From Candidatus Woesearchaeota archaeon (GTDB lineage: Archaea > Nanobdellota > Nanobdellia > Pacearchaeales > GW2011-AR1): a DNA stretch of 39,985 nucleotides. This document shows positions 12,210 through 13,661 of the stretch, piece after piece. The DNA lies in the NCBI GenBank assembly GCA_964579545.1, contig CAZOGQ010000001.1, positions 1 through 39,985 of the forward strand, given 5' to 3'. The position numbers and the translations under genes were made by a program. The notes below the pieces were generated by a model. It ran no database searches. It worked only from the letters and a program-made list of their open reading frames with translations, and was not told where the DNA came from. The first letter of the stretch is position 1. Each line of letters opens with the position of its first letter.

Positions 12210-13661
12210 ATGGATTATAAAAAAATAGGTTTAATGTCTGGAATTGAAATACATCAACAACTTGATACTGGTAAGTTGTTTTGTTCTTGTCCAAGTGTTT
12301 TGAGAACAGATAAGCCAGACTTAAATGTTGGAAGAAGACTACATGTTGTGGCAGGAGAAGCTGGTCAGACAGATGAGGCGGCTGAATATGAAAAAACAAG
12401 AGACAGGCAATTTATTTATGAGTTTTATAATGATACAAACTGCTTAATTGAATTAGATGAAGCACCCCCTAAACTTATTAATCAAGATGCATTGAAAATA
12501 GCTCTTCAGATTTCTCTTCTTTTGAATTGTGAAATAGTTCCTGTTAGTCAGATTATGAGGAAGACAGTTATAGATGGAAGTAATACATCTGGTTTCCAAC
12601 GCACAGTTCAAATAGCACGAAATGGCTATGTTGAAACAAAACAAGGCAAAATTGGTATTGAGGGTGTGTTTCTTGAAGAAGATGCCGCAAGAATAATTTC
12701 TCGAGATAAAGAGAATAATAAAATTGTATATAGACTTGACAGACTTGGTATCCCTCTTGTAGAAATAGCAACTGCTCCGGATATTAAGACTCCTAAACAG
12801 GCTAGAGAAGTTGCTTTACAAATTGGCGAAATTCTTCGGGCATGTAAAGTAAAAAGAGGCATAGGCACAATTCGACAAGATGTAAATATATCCATTGCAA
12901 ATGGAAAAAAACAAAGAAAGAGAATTGAAGTTAAAGGTGTTCAAGAGCCGCGGTTAATACAAAAGGTAATTGAAAATGAAGCTAAAAGGCAGCTTGAACT
13001 TATAAAGAAAAAGAAAAATATAAACGAGGTACGCAAGGCAAATCCAGATGGCTCTACATCATTTCTTAGACCAATGCCTGGTGCATCTCGAATGTATCCT
13101 GAAACAGACCTTCCACTTTTAAAAATTTCAAGGCAGTTAATTGATGAAGTTAAAAAATCTCTGCCGAGACTTAAGTCAGAGCTCCGGCATGAGTTAAGAC
13201 AGGAAGGTTTAAATGAAGAATTAATTTCTTTATTGCTTAAAGAAAATAAGCTGCAGGAATATAAAGAGCTTCTTCATATAATAGAAGAGCCTAGCCTCAT
13301 TGTAAAAATGCTTACTCTCTGGTTGAAGGAAATTGCAAGCCATGAAAAAAAATCACAAACAGCAGCCCAAAAAAAATTAAATATAGATGTTCTTGAAGCA
13401 ATCTTACAGAGTTTAAATAAAAACCAAATACAAGAAACAGATATCAAACAAATTATGGCAGATATTGTTAATGGAAAAAATGTACAAGAGGCATTAAAAA
13501 TAGAAAAAGTAGATATAGGCAAGATAGAAGAAGAAATTCTTCACTTAATTAAAGGAAAACCTGGCTTAAACATAAATGCATATATGGGTCTCATTATGAA
13601 AAAATTTAAGGGTTTCTCAGGAAAACAAATTATTGAGATTCTGAAGAAGTATGTTAAGTAG
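12210..13661 (+). CDS. gatE: Glu-tRNA(Gln) amidotransferase subunit E, short form lacking the AspRS-like (GAD) insertion domain
   Basis: GatE-type motifs are present: '[19 protein letters not shown]', '[16 protein letters not shown]', '[12 protein letters not shown]', '[11 protein letters not shown]' and '[18 protein letters not shown]'. It has a YqeY/GatB-like tail. It is 483 aa versus about 620 aa for characterised GatE. Confidence 0.8.
   Translation: [483 protein letters not shown]

Follow-up and report, generated by a model that had tools for sequence, protein, structure and literature searches.

GatDE counts as a signature enzyme of archaea, and the exclusion of ND-AspRS has been proposed as the reason why archaea split the synthesis of Gln and Asn between GatDE and GatCAB. 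To our knowledge, an insertion of ~130 residues is present in every GatE studied, and we found no description of a GatE lacking it in the searchable full-text literature. This insertion has been proposed to form a docking pocket for ND-GluRS, giving rise to a tight, tRNA-independent transamidosome, and to exclude ND-AspRS sterically (PMC2943598, PMC2330236, PMC3241645). In the stretch of DNA analysed here (39,985 nucleotides; hereafter the window), an open reading frame (ORF) of only 483 amino acids raises the question of whether it encodes a genuine GatE, whether the insertion is truly missing, and how such a form came about. Based on the results below, this ORF is likely the GatE of an archaeal GatDE in a minimal, GatB-like three-domain form, which has secondarily lost the insertion and most likely works together with GatD.

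The ORF encodes a full-length GatE

The ORF (positions 12210..13661, plus strand, ATG start) passes both GatE equivalog models, NF003107 with 487.1 bits (cut-off 456) and TIGR00134 with 454.1 bits (cut-off 319.55), in each case in two stretches. It stays below the cut-offs of all GatB models, the best of which, NF004012, yields 188.8 bits against a required 338, while TIGR00133 yields 170.7 bits against 314.8. The initial annotation, made from the sequence alone, had described the motifs of the catalytic core as GatE-type rather than GatB-type, in full agreement with these scores. The first part of the cradle (catalytic) domain comprises residues 1-262 (12210..12995, plus strand), is recognised as GatB_N and aligns with residues 1-268 of chain C of the solved GatE structure 2D6F; it includes the basic loop CKVKRG. 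By alignment to solved GatE, residues 276-483 (13035..13661, plus strand) make up the remainder of the cradle (RKANPDG...RMYPETD), the helical domain and the YqeY-like tail. As the ORF matches solved GatE and the family members at both its N- and its C-terminus, we consider it to be full length.

At the level of individual motifs, the ORF contains IHQQLDT (residues 14-20) and a 12-residue motif at positions 121-132, and its GatE-type cradle motifs, including RMYPETD, are invariant in the family; the GatB paralogs of relatives carry ICPxCTGQPGxKP and RKHYxWPDLPKGYQ instead. Among 26 family members, more than 100 alignment columns are invariant, encompassing EIHQQ, GSNxxGFQRT, LEEDxxR, PLxEI, RGxGTIRQD and RMYPETD, and sequence comparison identifies EIH, LEED and PLxEI as motifs common to GatB and GatE that are conserved here. 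The cradle loop CKVKRGIG, in which C212, V214, R216 and G217 are invariant, appears to correspond to TRVKRGLG of the M. thermautotrophicus protein, with which it aligns. In GatE, a positively charged loop at this site replaces the 3-10 turn of bacterial GatB and reads the first base pair (PMC2811023). The GXXAXGX motif reported for the GatE tail was dropped as a marker because its alignment is ambiguous in this DPANN clade, where neither the short nor the long forms clearly conserve it.

The GAD insertion is replaced by a short turn

Compared by phmmer to the 619-residue GatE of M. thermautotrophicus (2d6f_C), the ORF aligns in two blocks, residues 1-273 with residues 1-268 of the chain and residues 272-428 with residues 397-550, skipping ~128 residues of the chain (269-396). 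The 633-residue GatE of P. abyssi (1zq1_C) gave the same two-block pattern, with the C-terminal part aligned to residues 383-625. In a Pfam scan, the ORF matched GatB_N alone, over residues 10-311, and returned no GAD match (PF02938) even at E<=1. The same scan, as a positive control, scored GAD in long relatives with 30.8-38.7 bits (cut-off 23.4), and many close homologs gave a PF02637 match. A custom GAD HMM derived from 116 long GatEs had no match in the short ORF either. At the site of the insertion, residues 263-275 (12996..13034, plus strand) form a short, Lys-rich turn, exactly as the initial annotation had described this junction.

To place these observations in the context of the family, we used an alignment of 223 sequences, comprising 97 short GatEs, eight GatB sequences as outgroup and 118 long forms. 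Between residues 262 and 276 of the query, the 105 short GatE and GatB sequences have 9-16 residues. In the 118 long forms, this segment spans 92-178 residues; two decayed forms have 92 and 99, the others roughly 125-178. As judged from this alignment, the insertion state is a discrete presence or absence and not alignment noise. Pfam, the custom HMM, the alignment to solved GatE and the segment lengths thus all agree that the insertion is absent, as had been claimed at the outset.

The ORF was also modelled with AF2, yielding a pLDDT of 85.2 and a pTM of 0.76. In the model, the junction consists of a helix (residues 247-266) followed by a strand (273-277), with pLDDT values of 84-91, and residues 308 to 482 are all-helical; this confident model, like the two profile searches, offers no GAD-like domain. 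Foldseek searches with the model retrieved GatE chains as best matches (E ~1e-35), followed by GatB chains with TM scores of 0.6-0.72, full-length GatB superimposing at 0.69-0.72. Superposition on both proteins supports the proposed residual architecture of cradle, helical and tail domains. The short GatE resembles canonical archaeal GatE (2D6F chain C, 1ZQ1 chain C) in its cradle, which is ~50-60% identical over residues 1-270, and in its GatE-type motifs; it also has the helical domain, the tail and what appears to be the basic loop at the site of the bacterial GatB 3-10 turn, and a GatD is encoded nearby. It differs in having 483 residues in place of 619-633 and in lacking the ~128-residue AspRS-like insertion of the canonical proteins. 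Its resemblance to GatB (TIGR00133, 3AL0_B, 4WJ3_B, 3IP4_B) is one of architecture only, namely three domains, ~480 residues, the above TM scores and a similar turn at the junction, whereas identity is just ~20-26% and the GatB motifs PGxKP..N and RKHYxYPDLPKGYQ are absent.

Distribution and origin of the short form

The short form is widespread and not special to this ORF. All of the 120 best homolog clusters have lengths of 472-516 residues, and more than 100 clusters with identities of 59-66% share this short architecture, on contigs of up to 832 kb. Among the 80 best species-representative loci, which stem from Pacearchaeota, Woesearchaeota and Nanoarchaeota MAGs, 75 encode the short form, among them one complete genome (CP061211.1). 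A survey of GatE lengths had been suggested with the initial annotation, and hundreds of relatives have the short form. The names given by NCBI to some loci ('Methanosarcinales', 'Liptonbacteria') are probably placeholders or mis-binned labels, and taxon names are sparse for the odd short forms.

As the window derives from a metagenome-assembled contig, the short length could in principle reflect an artefact of assembly or gene calling, or a decaying pseudogene. The chance of this is close to nil: the length characterises the family and recurs on hundreds of independent contigs, which excludes a local assembly deletion, and the more than 100 independent clusters, the long contigs and the complete genome with the same architecture rule out an artefact; moreover, the frame is intact, the catalytic motifs are invariant and the fold is confidently predicted. 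It is a different matter whether the short form might be ancestral, a relic from before the insertion that persisted in deep-branching DPANN, with the long form being derived. The junction, RQL-xLIKxGKKVxxEVR, does resemble the turn RQ..L..GG.V.QETR of GatB, a paralog that never had the insertion, and the deep nodes of our neighbour-joining (NJ) tree are unresolved, with a backbone bootstrap of about 0 that leaves the number and direction of events uncertain. Nevertheless, we regard this scenario as very unlikely. In at least five places of the tree, short forms are nested among long forms within clades with bootstrap values of 72-100, so that an ancestral short form would require a homologous domain to have entered this one site independently at least five times. 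The query itself is closer to the long forms P0124 and L075 (58-59% identity) than to the Woese-type short forms (43-48%), and linker length and sequence at the junction are clade-specific among short forms. Some full-length GatEs contain insertions of 92, 99 or 124-125 residues with a weak or no GAD HMM score, pointing to erosion, and in a Fitch reconstruction on a GatB-rooted tree, the state at the root is the long form.

The intermixing of short and long forms in these clades, together with the partly decayed insertions, indicates that the short form arose repeatedly by secondary loss, as far as the sequences can tell; a single origin of all short forms is ruled out by the identity and bootstrap evidence. 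The NJ backbone is too weak for counting events, and the 24 obtained by Fitch reconstruction are an inflated figure. In the Pace-type clade, a scenario of three losses has about the same parsimony as a single loss with one later regain.

Neighbouring genes and substrate identity

Upstream of the short gatE lies gatD (6811..8124, plus strand), encoding the glutaminase partner of GatE (437 amino acids; Pfam GatD_N, Asparaginase and Asparaginase_C; NF003217 with 450 bits against 310). This order is conserved in 37 of the 46 related loci with sufficient flank (22 of 28 Pace-type and 15 of 18 Woese-type). Downstream, an archaeal-type non-discriminating AspRS of 435 amino acids is encoded at 16825..18132 (plus strand; NF003483, aspartate--tRNA(Asn) ligase, 513.9 bits against 353). 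An aspS gene follows the short gatE within 3.5 kb in 24 of 25 Pace-type loci, compared to one of 18 Woese-type loci. Further downstream, gatA (22600..23964, plus strand) encodes the 454-residue amidase subunit of GatCAB, with a Pfam Amidase match of 5e-116 and a TIGR00132 score of 476.8 bits, just under the cut-off of 481.1. It is preceded by a putative divergent gatC (21919..22182, plus strand; 87 amino acids), an ORF conserved upstream of gatA in 14 loci, which has no Pfam match and whose sole near-full-length match to a PDB profile is a weak one to Aquifex GatC (3h0l_C, E=0.26). Neither a GatB nor a GluRS gene was found in the window. In at least eight related short-GatE loci, true archaeal GatB genes (453-482 amino acids, PF02934 and PF02637) adjoin gatD. 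Since these genuine paralogs coexist with short GatE in related genomes, we rejected the idea that short GatE replaces GatB in this lineage, even though the window itself contains no GatB.

The pair A1-U72 of tRNA-Gln is read by GatDE and sets this tRNA apart from tRNA-Glu and tRNA-Asn. In a related complete genome (L003), a tRNA-Gln(CUG) gene located beside the short gatE has A1-U72/A73, while the tRNA-Glu has G1-C72; the tRNA-Asn genes of two further relatives (L011 and L050) have G1-C72/G73. As the window contains no tRNA genes, substrate identity for this genome is extrapolated from the relative.

These surroundings bear on two other explanations. One is a split-gene arrangement, in which a separate gene supplies the GAD domain in trans. 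The natural candidate is an unannotated ORF of 258 amino acids immediately upstream of gatE (11370-12146), for which we see no direct support: it has no Pfam match, is not conserved in relatives, and was discarded as the missing piece. When the custom GAD HMM was run on the six-frame ORFs of the window and of ~1.1 Mb of related loci, it retrieved five long GatEs only and no stand-alone GAD gene, rendering supply in trans highly improbable. The other explanation supposes that the short GatDE has changed its partners or substrates, either by binding ND-AspRS and acting on Asp-tRNA(Asn) as well, with dual specificity, or in that the short GatE, besides pairing with GatD, doubles as the B-type partner of GatA and GatC. 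The presence of GatC and GatA in a window without GatB would fit such a role, but GatCAB is complete in those relatives whose gatD adjoins a GatB gene, and in relatives tRNA-Asn differs from tRNA-Gln at the very pair at issue; the sequence of the basic cradle loop is conserved. Furthermore, aspS linkage is lacking in almost all Woese-type short forms, and the cluster may simply group genes for amide aminoacyl-tRNAs. On balance, a change of partners or substrates seems quite unlikely.

A model for the short GatDE

Our preferred reading is thus a GatE that has lost its insertion and probably retained its task. The insertion would have been excised cleanly, so that the helix at the end of the first cradle segment is now joined to the strand after it by a turn of 9-16 residues. 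GatD, with which the short GatE most likely still partners, would supply ammonia by its glutaminase activity, and the short GatE would phosphorylate and amidate the Glu on tRNA-Gln, its cradle loop and tail domain selecting this tRNA by the A1-U72 pair and the D-loop. Instead of a pre-formed GluRS:GatDE complex, the model predicts a GatCAB-like hand-off of Glu-tRNA(Gln) that is tRNA-scaffolded or transient. Such a loss would have been repeated in small-genome DPANN, including those of the Pacearchaeota and Woesearchaeota types and a Micrarchaeota-related lineage, among others. That the enzyme is active, that it has kept its specificity for Gln and that transamidosome formation is affected are predictions of this model.

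The initial annotation had called this protein a natural deletion test of whether the insertion is dispensable. The description is a fair one; dispensability itself is deduced from conservation, GatD synteny and the identity elements of tRNA-Gln. In vivo, the core reaction probably proceeds without the insertion, given how large and conserved the family of short GatEs is and how repeatedly it has arisen. Pairs of short and long relatives with about 60% identity provide natural constructs for both roles proposed for the insertion.

Parallel loss of the GAD domain in AspRS

Directly downstream of the archaeal-type AspRS, the window encodes a second, bacterial-type AspRS of 465 amino acids (18171..19568, plus strand), which scores 677.9 bits with NF001750, again in two stretches. 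In a phmmer comparison with 6wom_A, its residues 5-295 correspond to residues 6-300 of the chain and its residues 298-460 to residues 425-587, and Pfam detects no GAD domain in it. For the GAD domain of AspRS, a role in modulating the stability of the Asn-transamidosome has been proposed (PMC3367201). The GAD domain of bacterial AspRS (PF02938) and the GatE insertion have homologous folds and were lost in the same lineage, but the host protein of the former is a class II aaRS. As to a coupling of the two losses, three loci with a GAD-bearing AspRS gene (L081-L084) were inspected, and no gatE was found within 10 kb.

It is conceivable, if rather unlikely, that the GAD fold is a shared transamidosome-organising module which DPANN discarded from both GatE and the bacterial-type AspRS, and that the short GatDE then assembles with the downstream AspRS into a combined or dual-specificity factory. 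If so, loss of the GAD domain from GatE would lift the steric exclusion of ND-AspRS, and the enzyme would no longer be strictly dedicated to Gln. More generally, its parallel loss from GatE and AspRS suggests that small-genome DPANN strip accessory domains from translation enzymes, and annotation rules for these two proteins that are based on length or architecture fail in these lineages. For the bacterial-type AspRS, ~80 homolog clusters measure 453-478 amino acids, and the loss of its GAD domain is lineage-wide.

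A GatE ortholog without the GAD domain

The ORF at 12210-13661 (+) begins with ATG and encodes 483 residues; the GatE motifs are there, as is the junction [24 protein letters not shown], all as read in the initial annotation. The protein exceeds the curated cut-offs of both GatE equivalogs in NCBIfam, each in two stretches (NF003107, 487.1 bits vs 456; TIGR00134, 454.1 bits vs 319.55), while all GatB models remain far under theirs (best 188.8 vs 338). A phmmer search of PDB sequences likewise ranks the GatEs of M. thermautotrophicus (E 3e-101) and P. abyssi (1e-86) first, with GatB chains at E 1e-32 or worse. 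These results identify it as a GatE ortholog with a GatE-type core, as proposed, and rule out GatB; databases already name these short proteins GatE. Aligned to solved GatE and to its own family, the protein begins and ends where they do, so the ORF is full length.

The missing part is internal. Residues 1-273 match residues 1-268 of M. thermautotrophicus GatE (2d6f_C, 619 aa) and residues 272-428 match 397-550, skipping ~128 residues (phmmer). Pfam finds GatB_N alone and no GAD domain (PF02938) at E<=1; two further short relatives have no GAD score in a scan that detects the domain in long relatives, three of which, as positive control, reach 30.8-38.7 bits (cut-off 23.4). Nor did an HMM built from 116 long GatEs pick up GAD among the six-frame ORFs of the window, bearing out the claimed absence of the insertion; provision of GAD in trans seems very improbable. 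An AlphaFold2 model built with 26 family sequences, at pLDDT 85.2 and pTM 0.76, is confident; at the junction it places helix 247-266, a short turn and strand 273-277 in succession, and it makes the C-terminal half all-helical. With this model, Foldseek retrieves GatE chains first from the PDB (E ~1e-35, 34% identity). The model can also be overlaid on GatB chains over their full length (TM 0.69-0.72); "GatB-like architecture" was an accurate description.

Distribution and evolution of the short form

The best 120 homolog clusters are all 472-516 aa long, with 59-66% identity to the query; several bear a GatE name assigned to Candidatus Pacearchaeota, and the contigs behind these clusters reach 832 kb. 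In GTDB contigs (one genome per species), 75 of the 80 best loci carry a short gene, down to 38% identity, and five carry long genes of 599-624 aa. Labels on the short-gene loci read Pacearchaeota, Woesearchaeota or Nanoarchaeota, and one of these loci is in the complete genome CP061211.1; this distribution refutes a local assembly deletion. More than 100 alignment columns do not vary among 26 family members, and all motifs shared with canonical GatE and GatB are among them; judged by this conservation, the family appears to be under strong purifying selection, and an artefact or pseudogene is barely conceivable. Among representatives at 50% identity, scanned exhaustively with HMMER, lengths are bimodal (26 full-length proteins at 455-496 aa; ~114 at 543-781 aa, mostly 576-650). 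At the insertion site, a 223-sequence alignment has 9-16 residues for 105 sequences (97 short GatEs and the 8 GatBs of the outgroup), whereas the 118 long forms have 92-178.

In a neighbour-joining tree of the shared columns, rooted with GatB and with an unresolved backbone, short and long proteins repeatedly fall together: P0199 (short) with P0219 (long) at bootstrap 99, P0161 with P0206 (Micrarchaeota) at 86, L062, L077 and P0184 with P0243 at 95, and the L066 group with P0177, P0179 and P0264 at 72. A further clade, at bootstrap 100, unites long L068, L074, L075 and P0124 with short L039, L050 and L051, and is sister (bootstrap 75) to a 35-member short clade that includes the query. Over the shared columns, identity to the query is 58-59% for long P0124 and L075 and just 43-48% for the Woesearchaeota-type short forms. 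Together, the mixed clades and these identities require at least five transitions. Junction linkers differ between clades in length and sequence, and some full-length GatEs carry eroded insertions: one of 92 residues without a GAD HMM score, one of 99 residues with 12 bits, and others of 124-125 residues with 25-69 bits. At the sequence level, transitions, clade-specific linkers and eroded insertions favour repeated loss over repeated gain, and we consider it quite unlikely that the short form is ancestral. For the Pacearchaeota-type clade alone, one loss may have been followed by recombinational regain. The short GatE is a domain-loss variant of a known enzyme.

Gene neighbourhood and a second GAD-less protein

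The gene lies in a conserved supercluster, gatD-gatE-aspS-gatC-(nudix)-gatA, whose products serve amide aminoacyl-tRNA synthesis. The window encodes GatD (6811-8124; NF003217, 450 bits), a tandem AspRS pair, the first archaeal and non-discriminating (16825-18132, +) and the second bacterial-type (18171-19568, +; 465 aa), a putative divergent GatC (21919-22182), a Nudix protein and GatA (22600-23964; TIGR00132, 476.8 bits, under the cut-off of 481.1). Of the Pacearchaeota-type loci whose flanks are long enough, 22 of 28 have gatD upstream of short gatE and 24 of 25 have aspS within 3.5 kb after it, often with gatC-(nudix)-gatA next; Woesearchaeota-type short forms keep gatD-gatE in 15/18 and aspS in 1/18. 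At least eight short-GatE loci contain a weak second GatE-like match, divergent from gatD, which is a genuine archaeal GatB (453-482 aa, GatB-type motifs; PF02934 and PF02637 confirmed in L011, copy truncated in L022). The lineage thus retains GatCAB beside short GatDE; no GatB was found in the 40-kb window.

The bacterial-type AspRS matches canonical bacterial AspRS (6wom_A) in two blocks that skip residues 301-424, its GAD domain, and hence lacks GAD as well. This form is lineage-wide (~80 homolog clusters, 453-478 aa long, from Pacearchaeota, Woesearchaeota and Nanoarchaeota) and is the one present at all 11 loci where short gatE has a bacterial-type AspRS nearby; the nearest GAD-bearing AspRSs, from Woesearchaeota, have 573-605 aa and ~62% identity. 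One lineage has therefore shed the same homologous domain from two different proteins of translation. Two homologs of the window's bacterial-type AspRS at 64-70% identity, P0294 (612 aa) and P0399 (740 aa), carry a PF04073 domain (YbaK/ProX-type aminoacyl-tRNA editing), which apparently replaces GAD in P0294 and accompanies it in P0399; such an insertion in AspRS would be unusual.

Substrate and predicted mechanism

In the complete Pacearchaeota genome (L003 8470-9786), genes for tRNA-Gln(CUG) and tRNA-Glu(CUC) lie immediately upstream of short gatE. Folded with U8, a standard T-stem/acceptor junction and a 7-bp acceptor stem, the tRNA-Gln starts at 8471, the ARAGORN start being one base too early, and has A1-U72 and A73. 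With U8 and the same type of junction, the tRNA-Glu has G1-C72, and tRNA-Asn in L011 and L050 has G1-C72/G73. GatDE uses the first base pair as an identity element (PMC2811023, PMC9499178), which A1-U72 thus retains; the basic cradle loop CKVKRG is also kept in the family alignment. Loop and base pair, the latter in relatives' tRNAs, support continued Gln specificity, and an altered partner or dual specificity appears unlikely.

The insertion has been proposed to form, with the catalytic domain, a concave pocket docking ND-GluRS, and to exclude ND-AspRS sterically (PMC2943598, PMC2330236, PMC3241645). The pocket is offered in the literature as the reason for the tRNA-independent ND-GluRS:GatDE complex, with a KD of ~40-100 nM vs 40 uM for H. 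pylori GluRS2:GatCAB. Short GatDE would catalyse the same three reactions, but we predict that Glu-tRNA(Gln) hand-off would be GatCAB-like, tRNA-scaffolded or transient, and that the steric block against AspRS would be lost. Natural long/short sister pairs make both long-standing proposals directly testable. Full-text searches, with incomplete coverage of the literature, turned up no description of a GatE that lacks the insertion; the short form should be a moderate surprise for specialists.

Additional observations

Directly downstream of gatE, 13683-14675 (-) encodes a regulator of 330 aa that carries a tandem pair of Lrp/AsnC-type HTH modules; similar double-HTH_AsnC proteins adjoin aspS/gatCAB clusters in L081 and L083, and it may tie regulation to the supply of amide amino acids. 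Between the aaRS genes and gatC, two genes in adjacent reading frames (21343-21859, +; 87 and 83 aa) look like a toxin-antitoxin module. Some DPANN GatBs have additional modules: L034 encodes a 659-aa GatB (~3621-5600, -) with a ~200-aa insertion between helical and tail regions, and L083 a 703-aa GatB (14386-16496) with a C-terminal GDE_C (PF06202) fusion. Elsewhere in the window, an ORF for an 884-aa secreted-looking protein (8660-11314, +) contains a 100%-identical direct repeat (10193-11113; each copy at least 300 nt, spaced 621 nt apart) that doubles a whole ~200-aa module. The repeat arose by very recent tandem duplication or, alternatively, through misassembly. Two serpin-family genes lie on this DPANN archaeal contig, at 50-511 (+), cut by the window start, and at 32740-34347 (-; 535 aa).
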